Virus genome (UHGV): UHGV-0318484
Origin: a virus
Strand: one strand, 5' to 3'
Length of the DNA stretch: 6,734 nucleotides
The first letter of the stretch is position 1; each line of letters begins with the position of its first letter. The notes under the pieces were generated by a model, which saw only the letters and a list, made by a program, of their open reading frames with translations, was not told the origin of the DNA and ran no database searches. Shown here one piece after another: positions 1 to 6,061 of the stretch. A program made the translations under genes and the position numbers.

Positions 1-501
1 ATTTCCGCCGCAGGTGAGTCTTGGCGGTAAAAATGTGGCCTGGCTGCACTCTGAAGTCACCGCATGGATGGCCGGGCGCATTGCCGGACGCAAACGGGGG
101 TACGACGCATGATGATGCCTGTTCTGCAAAAACTCCCTTTTTCTGGCTTGCCTTTTTCCGGCATTTGCGGATATAGTTTTTCCGTTGCCGCAAAATCGGC
201 AGCCGGGCGTGAGAACCCGAGTATGTTATCGGCGACATATGACGCGCCATGCGTCTTTTTTTGTGTCGCAATCAACGCCACAGAGCACCAGATTATGGTG
301 TGGCGTGTGGTTTGCCGTGCAGGTATGATCCTGTTCGCAATCGCATGTTATGCCTCTGAGTCAATGGTAGCTCAGGCGGGGCAGCCTCCGGGCTGGCCGG
401 TTTCCGATAACGCCGGTATTCTCACCCCCGTCTGGGCTATCGCCATCGAGCGTGAGAACTCCGGCGATAGCGTCATTTACGCTGTTATCGGAGGTTGCCT
501 T

Positions 502-699
502 ATGGCTACGACCCTTACCCCTTCACACCCTGAATTTGTCTTTGTGTTTGCGGCTGTCCGTCGCGCAGACCGTCATCCCCGTATCTGCATGCTTCGCACC
601 GTCGCCGGTGATGAACGCAGTGCCCGCCGTTCCCTTGTCCGTGACTATGTGCTCTCCCTTGCTGCCCGTCTGCCGGTGGTGGAGGTGTCCCGTGCGTAA
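502..699 (+). CDS. Hypothetical small protein, 65 aa ([65 protein letters not shown]); first gene of a two-gene coupled pair
   Basis: ATG at 502 preceded by GGAGG (490-494) with 7-nt spacing; in frame with the long track ORF 64-699, whose upstream part looks like non-coding read-through. Ends in tandem stops TAATAA (697-702). No recognisable family. Confidence 0.4.
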
Positions 700-979
700 T
701 AAAAAAGCCCCTCAGACCGTCTCAGCGCGTCATGACGCCCGTGAACACCTCAGCATTGAGGCTTATCATAAGCTCAACCGTGCCAGCGCCGTATCCCAGT
801 TTGTTGGGGGTGATTTGATTCACCGTGAACTCTCCGGCCTGCATCAGCTCTACATTCCGCATATTTTCAGCTACCTGAATGAAGATATTGATTTTGTGCT
901 GAATGAGCTGAAAGCCAAAGGCCTGTGCCGCGATTTTCTCGCCCAGCAGAAAGACCGGGGAGACAGGACGCATGTTTGA
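692..979 (+). CDS. Hypothetical protein, 95 aa, GTG start ([28 protein letters not shown]...[19 protein letters not shown]); second gene of the coupled pair
   Basis: GTG at 692 preceded by GGAGG (681-685) with 6-nt spacing; overlaps the upstream stop by 8 nt, suggesting translational coupling. This is the 3' part of track ORF 452-979, whose 5' part overlaps the better-supported frame of gene 502-699. Followed by an intrinsic terminator. Confidence 0.45.
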
Positions 980-986
980 TTTTCCC

Positions 987-997
987 CAGCTCCACCA
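987..997 (+). other. Possible att core: CAGCTCCACCA (CCAGCTCCACCA from 986), identical to the 3' acceptor end of tmRNA (ssrA)
   Basis: A 12-nt identity to the recalled E. coli ssrA 3' terminus, about 185 bp upstream of a P4-type integrase start. P4-family integrases recombine at the 3' ends of tRNA/tmRNA genes. The sequence upstream of 986 is not ssrA, so this is a core copy only. Confidence 0.3.
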
Positions 998-1181: not shown

Positions 1182-2393
1182 GTGGCAAGAACGACACGCC
1201 CCCTGACCAACACAGAAGTTCTGCGCGCTAAAGCGTTAGAAAAGGATCTAACGTTACATGATGGCGATGGCCTTTTTCTGCTCGTTAAAACGAACGGTAA
1301 GAAGTTGTGGCGTTTCCGTTATCAACGTCCAGCAACAAAACAGCGGACAATGATGGGGCTTGGTGCTTTCCCCGCCCTTTCACTTGCTGATGCTCGAAGG
1401 TTAAGAGCGGATTACCTTGCTTTGTTGGCTAATGGTATAGACCCACAAGTTCAAGCTGAATTTATCGAAGAACAACAACAGATAGCTCTAGACAGTATTT
1501 TTTCGACTGTTGCGACCAACTGGTTCCAGATAAAAAGCAAAAGCGTTACCCCTGATTACGCTAAAGATATATGGCGCTCACTGGAAAAAGACGTATTCCC
1601 TGCCATCGGGGAGATTCCTGTCCAGCAAATAAAAGCCCGAACACTAGTTGAAGCCCTTGAGCCAATCAAAGCTCGTGGAGCACTCGAGACAGTGCGCCGA
1701 CTTGTACAGCGCATTAACGAGATAATGATTTATGCCGTAAACACTGGTCTGATTGATGCCAATCCAGCATCAGGTGTTGGGATGGCCTTTGAAAAGCCCA
1801 GAAAACAAAACATGCCGACGCTGAGGCCAGAAGAATTACCAAAGCTGATGCGTTCTTTGTTCATGTCAAATCTGTCTGTTCCGACTCGCTGTCTCATTGA
1901 ATGGCAGCTTCTGACTCTAGTGCGTCCTGCTGAAGCTTCCGGTGCTCGATGGGCAGAGATCGATCTCGATGCAAAGCTCTGGATGATTCCAGCCGAACGG
2001 ATGAAGGCCAAACGAGAGCACATAGTTCCTTTATCCACGCAGGCATTAGAAATTCTAGAAGTGATGCAACCTATTAGCGCACATCGTGAGCATGTTTTCC
2101 CAAGCAGAAATGACCCTAAACAACCAATGAATAGCCAGACTGCGAATGCCGCGCTTAAGCGCATTGGTTATGGTGGGAAGCTTGTTGCTCATGGATTACG
2201 TTCTATAGCAAGTACAGCACTAAATGAAGCTGGTTTTAATCCGGACGTAATTGAAGCGGCACTTGCTCACAGTGATAAAAATGAAGTTCGAAGAGCATAC
2301 AATCGTTCAACTTACCTTGAACAACGTATAGACTTGATGAATTGGTGGGGTGAATTTGTGCACAACCGCCACCGCCTCATGCAAGCGATTTAA
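1182..2393 (+). CDS. int: P4-family tyrosine integrase (site-specific recombinase), 403 aa, GTG start
   Basis: AAGGAG (1168-1173) 8 nt before GTG at 1182. The N-terminus (LTLHDGDGLFLLVKTNGKKLWRFRYQRP) matches the P4-type integrase N-terminal DNA-binding domain. The C-terminus carries the HGLRSIAST box and a tyrosine in RRAYNRSTYLEQR, consistent with tyrosine recombinase catalytic residues. Tandem stops TAATAA. Confidence 0.92.
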   Translation: MARTTRPLTNTEVLRAKALEKDLTLHDGDGLFLLVKTNGKKLWRFRYQRPATKQRTMMGLGAFPALSLADARRLRADYLALLANGIDPQVQAEFIEEQQQIALDSIFSTVATNWFQIKSKSVTPDYAKDIWRSLEKDVFPAIGEIPVQQIKARTLVEALEPIKARGALETVRRLVQRINEIMIYAVNTGLIDANPASGVGMAFEKPRKQNMPTLRPEELPKLMRSLFMSNLSVPTRCLIEWQLLTLVRPAEASGARWAEIDLDAKLWMIPAERMKAKREHIVPLSTQALEILEVMQPISAHREHVFPSRNDPKQPMNSQTANAALKRIGYGGKLVAHGLRSIASTALNEAGFNPDVIEAALAHSDKNEVRRAYNRSTYLEQRIDLMNWWGEFVHNRHRLMQAI

Positions 2394-2420: not shown

Positions 2421-3779
2421 ATGCCAAATAACTACCATCAATACATCGAAGACGTTAGTGATGATATAAAGACATGTCTTGAAGGAATGGGATGCCAACC
2501 CATACTTTTTGTTGGATCGGGATTAACCAAGAGATATCTTTCTGGCCCAAACTGGGAAGAACTTCTTCAGCAACTTGCTAATGAATGTCCTAACATCGAT
2601 AAAAGATTTGCCTATTATAAACAGAAATACCCCGAGTTGATTGATATCGGCAGTGTATTTTCTGATTCTTATAACGAGTGGGCATGGGGTGATGGAGAGA
2701 AAGAATTTCCAGCAGAGTTATTTGATGCAGGCAATGAGCCAAGTATTTATTTTAAATACAAAGTATCTAGTATTTTCAACTCATTGTTACAAGAAAAAGA
2801 AATCGTAAACAACGGTGAAATTGAACTTCTGAGAAAGATTCACCCTCATTCAATCATCACAACAAATTACGACAAATTACTTGAATCGATATATCCTGAG
2901 TTTACCCCCATTATAGGCCAAAAAATCCTTTACGCTAATCACGGTAGCATTGGTGAAATACTTAAAATACATGGTTGCTGCTCCACTCCTGAAAGCATAA
3001 TAATAAACCGCGATGACTACGATGACTTCATAAAGAAGAAGAAATATTTAAGCGCAAAACTGCTTACTTTCTTTGCTGAACACCCTCTTCTATTTATAGG
3101 TTACAGCGCAGAAGACTCGAACATAAAAAACATACTATCTGATATTGATGAACTACTTTCAGAAAATGGAGATGTCATTCCAAATATATACATTTTAGAA
3201 TGGACGAGCAAACAAAATGAAAGTGAATACCCACGCCGTGAACGGCTGATTCAAGTATCTGCAAACAAAAGCATTAGAATAAAAAGTATAGTAGCAAATG
3301 ACTTCTCTTGGGTATTTTCAGCGTTTGGCGCGAACAGAGCACTTGATAACATAAATCCCAAATTATTGAGGGCACTTTTAGCTCGCACTTACGATCTCGT
3401 CAGAACTGATATACCTCGCAATCCTGTCCAAGTTGATTACCGAGTTTTATCAAGCATTAGCGAGTCAGAAGGTGAATTAGCGAAATTATATGGTATCGCC
3501 ACATCGTCAGATGGTATGGCATTTAATGCCAGTTATCCTTTTACTTTAACCACGCTAGGGCAATCACTTGGTTTCAAAGGCTGGCATGATGCGAACAAAC
3601 TATTAGAAGTAGTTAAAAACATCACGAACGTAGACATCAAGACATTCGATAACAAATACCACTATGCAATAATGAACGGTGATGAGATTCAGTCCCATAG
3701 ATATTCAAACTATCTTCGAGAACTCCTCGAAAAGGTTAGGGATGGAGAGGAGTTTGAGTTAGGAATAAAGGCTCCATAA
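2421..3779 (+). CDS. SIR2-like (sirtuin/DHS-like NAD-binding fold) protein, 452 aa, with an unassigned C-terminal domain of about 200 aa; candidate NAD+-depleting anti-phage effector in the P4 int-cos hotspot
   Basis: AAGGAG (2409-2414) 6 nt before ATG; only 27 nt after the int stop. Motifs typical of defence-associated SIR2 domains (as in ThsA, DSR, SIR2-HerA): PILFVGSGLTKRY (Gly-rich NAD loop, aa 27-39), ITTNYD (Asn at about aa 149), KIHGC (His at about aa 184), LLFIGYSAEDSNI (aa 223-235). Markedly AT-rich compared with neighbours. Terminator follows. Confidence 0.85.
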   Translation: MPNNYHQYIEDVSDDIKTCLEGMGCQPILFVGSGLTKRYLSGPNWEELLQQLANECPNIDKRFAYYKQKYPELIDIGSVFSDSYNEWAWGDGEKEFPAELFDAGNEPSIYFKYKVSSIFNSLLQEKEIVNNGEIELLRKIHPHSIITTNYDKLLESIYPEFTPIIGQKILYANHGSIGEILKIHGCCSTPESIIINRDDYDDFIKKKKYLSAKLLTFFAEHPLLFIGYSAEDSNIKNILSDIDELLSENGDVIPNIYILEWTSKQNESEYPRRERLIQVSANKSIRIKSIVANDFSWVFSAFGANRALDNINPKLLRALLARTYDLVRTDIPRNPVQVDYRVLSSISESEGELAKLYGIATSSDGMAFNASYPFTLTTLGQSLGFKGWHDANKLLEVVKNITNVDIKTFDNKYHYAIMNGDEIQSHRYSNYLRELLEKVRDGEEFELGIKAP

Positions 3780-3807: not shown

Positions 3808-3830
3808 GGCCGCTTTAATAGCGGCTTTTT
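3808..3830 (+). terminator. Rho-independent terminator downstream of the SIR2-like gene
   Basis: Stem GCCGCT (3809-3814) pairs with AGCGGC (3820-3825), loop TTAAT, followed by TTTTT (3826-3830). Confidence 0.55.
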
Positions 3831-3966: not shown

Positions 3967-3985
3967 GTGCTTTCCCCGCCTCGCC
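3967..3985 (-). other. cos site: 19-nt P2/P4 cohesive-end sequence (GGCGAGGCGGGGAAAGCAC on the minus strand)
   Basis: Plus strand reads GTGCTTTCCCCGCCTCGCC, the exact reverse complement of the recalled P2/P4 cohesive end. Position between the accessory region/int and psu matches P4 genome organisation (left end cos-accessory-int; right end sid-delta-psu-cos). Confidence 0.8.
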
Positions 3986-4087
3986 CGCCCGCTTTGCGGG
4001 GCGGTTTTAATGCAGTTGCACTGACACGCTCAGACCGCGCCGGGAATGGTGCGGTCTGCAGAAAATGAGGCAGGAAAACGCATGCAA

Positions 4088-4149: not shown

Positions 4150-4722
4150 TTACACAGACTGACGTGATGCCAGTTGCGCACTTTTACGCGAAAAAATCAT
4201 GTTCTGCGCAGGGGTGAATTTTTCACGGCTGTCATCCACCGAAGCCGCGTCAGGCCTGAATCCGATGGCCGTTAAAATGTCGCTATCCTGTGCGGAATAA
4301 TTAATTTTTTCACCCTTCGCAAGCCAGGACAGGAGGGCTTCACGCAGGGCATCTGTGGCACGCTGTATGGCACAGTTTCGGGCAATGGCCGTCAGCTCAC
4401 TGTAGCCCATCAGCTCCGGTGCCAGTGCCGCCGCCAGTGCTGTGCCGTGCTGCTGCATAAAATCATTCAGCCGGTCGCGGATGCTGATGTGCTGAACGGC
4501 TTCATGCGAACGAATATAACGACCGGCGGCCTGATTCACCTGCCATTTTCTGACTTCGATAATATTGCGTAATTCGTCCAAGCGACTGACGTTTCTGCCT
4601 TCTCCTGACAGAAGCCGCAGATATTCCTGTTCGGCCGCAGCCAGCTCATTTTTGCGTTGCAGCCATGCTGCTTTGTTATTCTGACAGGTGTCAAAGGCCT
4701 GCTGTAAGGCTGTGCTTTCCAT
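4150..4722 (-). CDS. psu: Psu, polarity suppression protein (P4 capsid decoration protein and Rho antagonist), 190 aa
   Basis: Length and sequence (MESTALQQAFDTCQNNKAAWLQRKNELAAAEQEYLRLL...SRQSV) match recalled P4 Psu; third gene of the sid-delta-psu late operon reading toward cos. Confidence 0.92.
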   Translation of the reverse strand: MESTALQQAFDTCQNNKAAWLQRKNELAAAEQEYLRLLSGEGRNVSRLDELRNIIEVRKWQVNQAAGRYIRSHEAVQHISIRDRLNDFMQQHGTALAAALAPELMGYSELTAIARNCAIQRATDALREALLSWLAKGEKINYSAQDSDILTAIGFRPDAASVDDSREKFTPAQNMIFSRKSAQLASRQSV

Positions 4723-4795: not shown

Positions 4796-5296
4796 TCATT
4801 CCAGACGCAGCGAATATGATTGTGTTTTTAACCGTACTGGCGGCAGTTCCTGTTTTTCATGCAGGCGTTCTGCCAGTTCGTCCGGTGTGACCGGGCGGAC
4901 AATGAAGCGGTTGATGGTCTGAAGCGTTTTAAACACCAGACCACATCCCGGATCCGTGCACACATAAAAACGCTCGGTGACTTCCTGAGACAGACGCCGC
5001 GATGTTCTTGACAGTGCAAGGCCTTTACATCTCCGACAACAATATCCGGTAACAAGCATTCTTTTCGGGCGTTTCATACTACCGGAGGCTGACGTCAGTG
5101 AATCGCGGTATCTCTGTTTGCCTGAAATGTATTCCATTCCTGAATCTTTACAGTCAGAGAAAAAGCTTTCACTCGCTTCAAATGTCGCAGAGCAATAAAT
5201 ATTCCGGCACTGTGCAATCATTATCTTGGTGCCATCGTCCATGAAATGTGCGCGACGGGTGTGAGCAACATGTCCACACGACGGGCAGTAAATCAT
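4796..5296 (-). CDS. delta: Delta, late-gene transcriptional activator (tandem Ogr-like zinc-finger domains), 166 aa
   Basis: Two Ogr-like Cys motifs (CPSCGH...CRNIYC and CCRRC...CTDPGC); length matches P4 Delta. Its start overlaps the sid stop in ATGA (5293-5296). Confidence 0.92.
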   Translation of the reverse strand: MIYCPSCGHVAHTRRAHFMDDGTKIMIAQCRNIYCSATFEASESFFSDCKDSGMEYISGKQRYRDSLTSASGSMKRPKRMLVTGYCCRRCKGLALSRTSRRLSQEVTERFYVCTDPGCGLVFKTLQTINRFIVRPVTPDELAERLHEKQELPPVRLKTQSYSLRLE

Positions 5297-6027
5297 GACA
5301 GCAGTCCTCTGGCCTTAAGCTCTGCTCCCTGCTGGTCTATTTTGTCCTGCCACACCTTGCGCTGTGCCGGTGTGCCTGCCACCTCATAATCCATGTGCGG
5401 GAGTGTTGCCGCTGACAGTCCGGTCAGCCGGAGAACCGGCTCGCCGGTGAGGCTGATTTGCATCTGTTTTATTTTCTGTTCCAGCGATGATTTCACCTGC
5501 TGCATGACAGCCTTTTCCGGCGCGACGTAGCCCTGATGGCCGGTGGTGTTGGCGAGCGGATTTTCCTGTACCAGGATACTCAGATGCATTGCCCGGACAA
5601 GCGCCTCACAGGTTTCATTCAGGGCGTGTTCCAGCTCATGCTCTGCATACAGACTCAGAAGGTGATGATGTGCCTTCCGGTAGGCGGTGGCCGTGCTGTC
5701 ACACGCCCCTTTCAGGCGTTCACGTTCGAAATTCAGCACCACGGCCAGATTGTCATATTCCTGTACCAGCTCCCGGCGTGCCACGCGCTCAATGTGGCGC
5801 TGTTTCAGCTCGTCGCTCAGGACACCACCGGCTGCACGAAAGGCCGTGCGCCAGTCGTCAGCGTCGTTTCCGTCGGCCTGCGCCAGCGCATTTTTTTCCT
5901 GCTCTGCCCGTTCAATGGCCGTGATGGTCTCATCCATCAGGCGGGCGTTCTCAAGATGAGCGGCTCTGGCCTTTTCCAGTTGTGCCAGCGCGGGTTGCAG
6001 ATATTCAGGGATGGTGTTGTCAGACAT
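5293..6027 (-). CDS. sid: Sid, capsid size-determination (external scaffold) protein, 244 aa
   Basis: Sequence MSDNTIPEYLQPALAQLEKARAAHLENARLMDET... matches P4 Sid. Start placed at ATG 6027 (GAGGAG 7 nt upstream) rather than the in-frame GTG at 6045 used by the ORF track. Confidence 0.88.
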   Translation of the reverse strand: MSDNTIPEYLQPALAQLEKARAAHLENARLMDETITAIERAEQEKNALAQADGNDADDWRTAFRAAGGVLSDELKQRHIERVARRELVQEYDNLAVVLNFERERLKGACDSTATAYRKAHHHLLSLYAEHELEHALNETCEALVRAMHLSILVQENPLANTTGHQGYVAPEKAVMQQVKSSLEQKIKQMQISLTGEPVLRLTGLSAATLPHMDYEVAGTPAQRKVWQDKIDQQGAELKARGLLS

Positions 6028-6061
6028 TTTCCGGCTCCTCGTCACTTCAGGTTAAGAAAAT

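Follow-up and report, generated by a model that had tools for sequence, protein, structure and literature searches.

A catalogued stand-alone SIR2 defence candidate of a P4-like satellite and its predicted winged-helix-like tail

Among the effectors of bacterial immunity, SIR2 NADases form a major class, and every known example has a sensor of its own as its switch: a small-molecule signal acting through the SLOG domain in ThsA, the phage tail tube protein in DSR2, a STAND ATPase in Avs5, and guide and target nucleic acids in SIR2-Ago. Which switch may operate in the SIR2-like protein encoded in virus genome UHGV-0318484 is the question raised by the 6,734 nucleotides (nt) analysed here, which are referred to as the window. 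The window is a P4-like satellite in which the SIR2-like open reading frame (ORF) is the sole gene between the integrase gene int and psu. A reading made from the letters alone (the sequence-only reading) had taken the N-terminal domain for an NADase and proposed the rest, from about residue 245 to the end, as a possible new sensor fold. The present analysis identifies the product as a PDC-S25-type stand-alone SIR2 candidate with a predicted winged-helix-like tail, a protein already catalogued and still uncharacterised, and reduces the part left uncharacterised from 208 residues to about 115.

A Pfam search with the full ORF returned SIR2_2 (PF13289) alone, over residues 144-266 (E 4e-27, 95 bits), passing the gathering threshold of this family, and the protein has a predicted Rossmann SIR2 fold with the catalytic Asn and His. 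The GSG loop and the TTNYD and KIHG motifs are invariant across 66 homologues, N149 and H184 included, and TTNYD and K-x-HG are shared with ThsA of type I Thoeris. The predicted NADase role of the domain, which the sequence-only reading had also supposed, is well supported by homology because these invariant motifs line up with those of catalysis in ThsA and DSR2, in both of which the catalytic role of the TTNYD Asn is established. Matches to the same part reach E 5e-9 for DSR2 chains, with structures of DSR2 H171A among them, and the comparison supports the assignment of the N-terminal domain to the ThsA/DSR2/KomC type of SIR2. An AlphaFold2 model of the full-length protein built from 66 sequences (mean predicted local distance difference test score, pLDDT, 78; predicted template modelling score, pTM, 0.65) is confident over residues 1-300.

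The SIR2 fold was found to reach about residue 295, as the Pfam match extends to residue 266, the alignment with ThsA to 300 and the strands of the model to 292. Judged from alignments and models, the half that had been left unassigned appears to consist of four parts, namely the end of the SIR2 fold (about 245-295), an extension (296-338), a linker (339-369) and a domain (370-445). The claim that no motif can be assigned between about residue 245 and residue 452 was borne out at the sequence level, where Pfam and NCBIfam searches with residues 244-452 alone gave no match, and did not hold for residues 245-295, which belong to the SIR2 fold, nor for residues 296-338, which are common to PDC-S25 proteins. 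The DNA start given for the region, position 3000, was misplaced too, as it corresponds to residue 194, within the catalytic core, and the peptide quoted as its beginning, SDIDELL, starts at residue 240 (nt 3138).

These parts differ in charge and in conservation. Residues 296-338 have a median isoelectric point (pI) of 11 and a net charge of +3, with K314, R317, R322 and R328 conserved and a pI of 11 in the helix at 313-333; the linker has a median pI of 4.2 and a net charge of -4, and the domain at 370-445 is net basic (median pI 9.2). Among homologues below 60% overall identity, regional identity was 68% in the core (140-235), 63% at 296-338, 46% in the linker and 49% at 370-445. Conservation extends from Enterobacterales as far as Bacillota, Cyanobacteria, Planctomycetes and methanogenic archaea, and the C-terminal region is, on this comparative evidence, clearly to be regarded as a selected domain and as no chance feature. 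The basic helix (pI about 11) stands directly before the acidic linker (window 3357-3527, residues 313-369), and this charge pattern is kept across the family; the two could act as an intramolecular DNA-mimic or autoinhibitory pair. Model confidence in the linker is low: the full-length model has pLDDT values under 50 at 324-344 and 353-363, and a model of the C-terminal region has values of 55-74.

The relation of the protein to PDC-S25 delimits the family-specific part. Using the hidden Markov models (HMMs) of PADLOC, the protein is a candidate PDC-S25 by E-value and bit score, taken without PADLOC's own thresholds: PDLC04968 matched residues 12-376 (E 2.1e-84, 282 bits), and a second PDC-S25 model, PDLC04967, matched with E 2e-33. 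Canonical full-length PDC-S25 proteins (about 530-540 residues) occur in temperate phages of Bacillus, Streptococcus and Lactococcus (BK5-T); a Mycolicibacterium phage record with a full-length PDC-S25 is unverified. One of them, BC1912 of phBC6A51 (L089:2468-4084, 538 residues), lies beside a lysis cassette. Like the window protein, the canonical form is a single-gene candidate of mobile elements and prophages with the same SIR2 core and helical extension, whereas the final 160 or so positions of the full profile are not covered by the window protein, whose last 114 or so residues are unrelated. On the PDC-S25 profile of 517 positions the window protein scored 282 bits over positions 10-358 and BC1912 scored 590 bits over positions 9-515. 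In BLASTP the two proteins share 31% identity over residues 20-338 only (E 8e-43), and hhalign between the window C-terminus and the BC1912 tail aligned only the helix at 310-338, NPKLLRALLARTYDLVRTDIP against KFSMKTMRQIKSQIYELVKTNDP, with no similarity to that tail past residue 338. Because they are common to the window family and to canonical PDC-S25, residues 296-338 can be considered a conserved extension of the effector core.

By these alignments, the family-specific part is residues 339-452 (nt 3435-3776, about 114 residues), which replace an unrelated tail of about 200 residues in the prophage PDC-S25 proteins, itself without a Pfam match. Such a replacement fits a swapped sensor or regulatory module, and the sensor or regulatory role formerly suggested for the C-terminal part is plausible in that exactly residues 339-452 are exchanged between this subfamily and prophage PDC-S25. 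When 1.84 billion representative proteins were searched exhaustively with an HMM built on residues 296-452, no more than 220 clusters were retrieved, and each complete protein checked carries an N-terminal SIR2_2 domain. Two apparent tail-only proteins from metagenomes (L092:444-1557 and L093:2475-3507) are split or frameshifted genes with an SIR2_2 fragment just upstream, which suggests pseudogenisation or assembly errors. A widely shuffled module was thus ruled out, as the tail is found on this SIR2 core only and its stand-alone copies are split genes. Given the swap with the BC1912 tail together with the exclusive fusion to SIR2, the tail is exchangeable within the wider PDC-S25 group and not promiscuous.

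What fold the tail adopts was addressed with a second AlphaFold2 run on residues 296-452, using 57 diverse sequences of 24-73% identity. This model has a mean pLDDT of 84, with 89-98 over residues 370-450, and both models show the same topology: a short strand, two helices, a beta-hairpin and a final helix. RacA superposes on it over 57 of 67 residues at 2.0 A and pSK1 Par over 51 of 53 residues at 2.1 A; further structural neighbours are many MerR-family proteins, TnrA/GlnR, excisionases (Xis, TorI, AlpA, RdfS) and the DNA-binding domains of small terminases. The best-conserved residues are those of the turn (L383/G384), W388 and the wing, D410-N411-[KR]-Y413-H414 and [KR]427-Y428-S429. Based on the two models, the tail is probably a winged-helix-like, divergent domain of the DNA-binding type, a conclusion held with moderate confidence. 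From its pI of 9.2 and the conserved basic and polar residues of the wing we infer that it may bind DNA.

Searches of sequence and structure databases gave no more than echoes of this class. Foldseek with the C-terminal model against the PDB was non-significant (best E 0.39), the top entries being MarR/ArsR winged helices. Pfam scans member by member in sets of 29 and 57 homologues returned scattered helix-turn-helix families and a sub-threshold Bro-N (PF02498) in 2 of the 57 (best E 4e-4; the one inspected scored 19.2 bits against a cut-off of 25.6 over residues 373-421); the window protein itself did not match Bro-N. With PHROGs profiles nothing was significant, phage repressor and Ant families remaining sub-threshold, and HMMER profiles against the PDB gave at best the N-terminal domain of Scc1, a kleisin (E 0.035), and SWIB (E 0.2). 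The sub-threshold echoes (Bro-N, LexA_DNA_bind, ScpB, the kleisin N-terminus, and the phage repressor and Ant PHROGs) are all of the helix-turn-helix type. Comparison with a MerR profile by hhalign reached 15% probability, and the alignment was confined to the final helix and strand two of the wing; the profile was validated against the PDB, where CueR, GlnR, MerR, BmrR, SoxR and TnrA matched with E 1e-22 to 1e-30. The tail is not to be called a member of the MerR family, since hhalign gave 15% and HMMER and Foldseek were non-significant. In predicted topology and net basic charge it resembles winged helix-turn-helix (wHTH) domains of the MerR/excisionase type (RacA, pSK1 Par, the N-terminus of type Ia ParA, MerR, TnrA/GlnR, Xis/AlpA/TorI), and differs from them in a longer recognition helix and an insertion before the wing, kinship at the sequence level being undetected.

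Comparison with the known SIR2 systems places the protein apart from each of them. ThsA likewise has its effector N-terminal and its regulatory domain C-terminal, but the latter is a SLOG/STALD domain that the window protein lacks, the ThsA HMMs, the PDB sequences and the SeThsA structure aligning to the SIR2 part only; ThsA also has ThsB (TIR) as a neighbour, whereas the window holds only int and psu beside the gene and no neighbour family recurs in more than 6 of 78 loci. An orphan ThsA, or a SLOG/STALD domain, was ruled out, as no profile, sequence or structure matched beyond the SIR2 domain and ThsB is absent; a Rossmann-like SLOG is clearly excluded on the predicted models. On these points the sequence-only reading stands: it had seen no obvious Gly-rich loop of the kind expected for the SLOG/STALD domain of ThsA and had leaned to an architecture other than that of an orphan ThsA, and the Foldseek comparison it had suggested, run on the C-terminal model, gave no significant PDB match. 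DSR2 and DSR1 are also SIR2 NADases made of one protein, with the effector at the N-terminus and the sensor at the C-terminus, and are similar in the SIR2 part, but they are proteins of 1000-1200 residues with large helical-repeat sensors against a tail of about 115 residues, and the NCBIfam equivalog for Dsr2 (NF041819) gave the window protein 14.6 bits against a cut-off of 1400. KomC of Kongming is the SIR2-only subunit of a three-gene system and Avs5 has a STAND ATPase sensor, both without a C-terminal winged helix; KomC, the SIR2 of Avs5 and human FAM118B are filament-forming SIR2 NADases, the filament being a trait of theirs, and none has a C-terminal winged helix.

The gene had been recorded before, as the system 'SIR2' of Rousset et al. 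(2022). The int-psu position of P4-like satellites is a defence hotspot, and 'SIR2_2 WP_001133507' was entered as single-gene cargo in Table S1A of the study that described it (Rousset et al., 2022; PMC9122126). The window gene fits this hotspot, placed between the P4 integrase and psu and beside the cos region. In the same study the gene was cloned from E. coli M605 as pFR88 (PMC9122126), whose insert begins at window position 2300 and is identical to the window over the stretch shown. A later survey lists it as 'Sir2-like (likely a NADase)', Rousset system 9 (PMC11754643). A literature search found no characterised name for the system beyond the Rousset catalogue, a Domainator table and the PADLOC listings. 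The architecture is thus no new discovery, being already known as P4 hotspot cargo and as PDC-S25 of PADLOC, and with respect to anti-phage activity the protein is a candidate only, catalogued and non-validated.

Full-length homologues of 52-96% identity were found in Enterobacterales, Pseudomonas, Xenorhabdus, Vibrio, Bacillota and Methanoperedens, and a genome scan confirmed 132 loci in 185,579 species genomes, with Cyanobacteria, Planctomycetes and methanogens included, a patchy distribution resembling that left by horizontal gene transfer. For 78 genome loci, every ORF lying up to 4 kb away from the gene was included in a clustering. A conserved partner gene was not found, as no neighbour family occurred in more than 6 of the 78 loci, and neighbours checked against PADLOC gave no match. 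Those that recur are genes of mobile elements and defence: P4-type integrase, primase, transposases, HsdR and a DarT1-NADAR pair. The DarT1 and NADAR neighbours matched solved proteins with E 1e-39 and 1e-80, respectively. By gene content, loci in which the SIR2 gene has DarT1-NADAR and HsdR as neighbours are small defence islands, and the gene itself is a stand-alone unit of mobile elements and defence islands. In several Bacillaceae genomes (L035:3676-5068, and also L036, L041 and L046) it lies directly 3' of the DarT1 and NADAR pair; at six loci the HsdR type I restriction subunit is encoded 2-3 kb 5' of it.

How might such a protein be switched on? The leading model, still tentative, is that of an NADase of the abortive-infection type that acts alone, serves a P4-like satellite as defence cargo and is gated by a tail that would bind nucleic acids. 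In this scheme the wHTH tail would keep the SIR2 enzyme inactive as long as the cell is uninfected. Once infection begins, the tail would bind a nucleic-acid cue, for example phage DNA or an intermediate of its replication or packaging; this would release or oligomerise the SIR2 domains, and NAD+ would then be depleted and phage replication aborted. The closest solved SIR2 relatives are all activated by filament formation. Gating by the tail is suggested by analogy, as every characterised defence SIR2 protein has an N-terminal effector and a C-terminal sensor and is activated by assembly, and a nucleic acid is the best first guess for the cue in view of the kind of fold predicted for the tail, of its basic charge and of its fairly high conservation across phyla, which would favour a generic ligand over a fast-evolving phage protein. 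Autoinhibition, oligomerisation, nucleic-acid binding and a defence phenotype are all steps that we infer. A more ambitious version is rather unlikely, namely that the tail of about 115 residues is a minimal nucleic-acid sensor not described before (basic helix, acidic DNA-mimic-like linker and divergent winged helix) that would couple direct recognition of invading DNA, or of a replication or packaging intermediate, to SIR2 filament activation within one chain of 452 residues, a protein that mobile elements would have carried through bacteria and methanogenic archaea and with sensors exchangeable between PDC-S25 subfamilies.

Several observations weigh against gating by nucleic acids in a defence protein. 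The recognition helix of the tail is weakly basic, and wHTH domains serve protein-protein contacts and autoregulation too, so that DNA sensing is one reading among others. The geometry between domains is not fixed by the full-length model (pLDDT below 50 for residues 324-363, pTM 0.65). In E. coli, where the gene has seven copies, one is split by an IS5-like element, ISKpn26 (MEI4BO-21, NZ_CM149565.1 1180502-1183060). Finally, pFR88 appears only among the 'additional tested systems' of Table S2B, outside the seven protective systems of Table S2A, in assays with eight coliphages (PMC9122126). That negative result is a real caveat, but it covers eight phages and a clone under the native promoter that begins 121 nt 5' of the ATG, and no promoter-like site was found in the 27 nt separating int from the gene; the choice of phages or poor expression may have been the cause.

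Among the rival explanations, the one given the best chance, though itself unlikely, is that the winged-helix tail serves as a protein-binding or oligomerisation module, either holding a resting oligomer or recognising a phage protein as the trigger. There are parallels for a resting oligomer in the SLOG domain of ThsA tetramers and in the N-terminal helix and wHTH of P1 ParA dimers, and for a phage-protein trigger in the C-terminal domain of DSR2, which recognises the tail tube. For it speak structural matches of the tail to domains whose action depends on protein contacts (TerS, RppC and the excisionase type), the fact that the known SIR2 defence proteins (DSR2, Avs5, ThsA, KomC) mostly sense proteins or small molecules, the weakly basic recognition helix, and an exchange between subfamilies like that of a specificity module. 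However, the domain as a whole is net basic, and its 49% identity in distant homologues together with a near-invariant wing fits a generic ligand better.

The sequence-only reading had thought a new sensor fold possible, and the idea that the C-terminal residues (about 115) form a new fold or a ligand-binding domain, the wHTH likeness being generic to alpha/beta proteins or an artefact of modelling, retains a small chance of being right. It draws on the lack of any significant match in Pfam, NCBIfam, PHROG and the PDB, on the non-significant Foldseek result and the hhalign value of 15% for MerR, and on the poor modelling of residues 339-369. Against it, two independent AlphaFold2 runs gave the same topology with pLDDT up to 98, and RacA and pSK1 Par superpose over nearly the whole length at about 2 A; with moderate confidence, the evidence does not favour a new fold.

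No better a chance is given to an ordinary transcriptional or tethering role, in which the winged helix would bind DNA for autoregulation or for parking on nucleoid or satellite DNA, would have no part in sensing infection, and activation would come from elsewhere, for example from the loss of a labile host factor or from an NAD-linked cue. The structural neighbours named here are all sequence-specific DNA binders for regulation, partition or excision, and a consensus scan of the 27-nt gap and of the integrase 3' end from position 2000 found no sigma-70-like promoter. Yet the upstream sequences of the gene are unrelated between genomes, so a conserved operator is unlikely, and a C-terminal domain found only with a toxic effector points to coupling with the activity of the enzyme. 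The remaining proposal, that of a non-defence enzyme (a DNA-associated NAD-dependent deacylase or ADP-ribosyltransferase modifying, for instance, a host or helper-phage protein for the biology of the satellite), is most improbable: it has on its side the RefSeq name 'SIR2 family NAD-dependent protein deacylase' of some records and one published test without an anti-phage phenotype, and against it a hotspot dominated by defence systems, restriction-modification and DarT-NADAR neighbours in other phyla, and a patchy spread suggestive of horizontal transfer (7 of 5,426 complete E. coli genomes, 132 loci in the species genomes scanned).

If the proposed gating of the SIR2 domain by a winged helix of 75 residues were true, the protein would be among the smallest self-contained immune proteins that sense and kill, and an easy system for work on the coupling between the binding of a ligand and the assembly of SIR2. 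With the prophage PDC-S25 proteins, the swapped tails would offer a natural experiment in sensor exchange, and the tail analysis indicates nucleic acids as the ligands to test first. Should the protein be inactive, the finding would be an annotated candidate with a common DNA-binding fold.

The features of the protein and of the surrounding satellite are collected in Table 1.

Table 1. Positions of the SIR2-like gene, its predicted parts and the neighbouring satellite features in the window
Feature	Position	Strand	Evidence or content
P4-type tyrosine integrase (int), left border of the hotspot	1182..2393	+	Pfam Arm-DNA-bind_3, Phage_int_M, Phage_integrase; annotation
SIR2-like ORF, 452 aa, WP_001133507-type	2421..3779	+	ORF scan, SIR2_2 at 95 bits, PDC-S25 profile
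Predicted SIR2 NADase-type domain, residues 1-295	2421..3305	+	GSG NAD loop (G32, G34), TTNYD (N149, D151), KIHG (H184)
N149 codon, predicted catalytic Asn of TTNYD	2865..2867	+	Invariant in 66 homologues; aligned to TTNYD of SeThsA/DSR2
H184 codon, predicted catalytic His of KIHG	2970..2972	+	Invariant; aligned to K[LV]HG of ThsA/DSR2
Basic helical extension, residues 296-338	3306..3434	+	NPKLLRALLARTYDLVRTDIP helix with K314, R317, R322, R328, D330, P332
Acidic linker with short helices, residues 339-369	3435..3527	+	Low model confidence
Predicted winged helix-turn-helix-like domain, residues 370-445	3528..3755	+	Strand-helix-helix-hairpin-helix; wing motifs DN[KR]YH (410-414), [KR]YS (427-429)
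Intrinsic-terminator-like hairpin GCCGCT-TTAAT-AGCGGC followed by TTTTT	3809..3830	+	Past the SIR2 stop codon; read by eye from the sequence
psu (polarity suppression protein), right border of the hotspot	4150..4722	-	Pfam Psu, E 8e-89
delta (Ogr/Delta zinc-finger activator)	4796..5296	-	Pfam Ogr_Delta; annotation
sid (capsid size determination scaffold)	5293..6045	-	Annotation in homologous E. coli loci; no Pfam match

The int stop codon and the SIR2 start are separated by 27 nt, and a ribosome-binding site, aaaggag, rated good, lies 8 nt 5' of the ATG. GC content is 0.35-0.41 in the SIR2 ORF against 0.5-0.58 in the flanks, and no ORF of at least 50 residues competes with it across 2808-3779 on either strand. 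The int/SIR2/psu order adjoins ssrA in the seven E. coli genomes, where the ORF is annotated as 'SIR2 family protein' (WP_001133507) and the copies other than the interrupted one are 99.9-100% identical to the window gene.

In P. aeruginosa (locus L002) a homologue 73% identical to the SIR2 protein is located near a Pf-like filamentous prophage with Zot, and 34 nt 3' of it, on the same strand, an ORF of 256 residues (L002:7387-8157) without a match in Pfam or PADLOC may represent an accessory gene peculiar to that lineage.

The 370 nt that separate the stop codon of the SIR2 gene from psu contain two terminator-like hairpins, at 3809-3830, which a pattern scan for terminators did not report, and at 3985-4004, the latter GC-rich (CCGCCC...GGGCGG, then TTTT) and situated in a conserved cos-proximal region that is present too in the P4 hotspots cloned by Rousset and colleagues.

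At the other end, window positions 1-990 (junction 986-990) are not the chromosomal smpB-ssrA flank. Of ssrA the window keeps about 12 nt of the 3' end only (the att core); ARAGORN found no tmRNA in the window, and the junction was not found in any complete E. coli genome. This first stretch is 94% identical to the P4-like region of the helix-turn-helix regulator, icd and derepression genes, which reference genomes carry immediately to the right of where the window ends, and because of this match the window looks circularly permuted, or derived from tandem or rearranged satellites.

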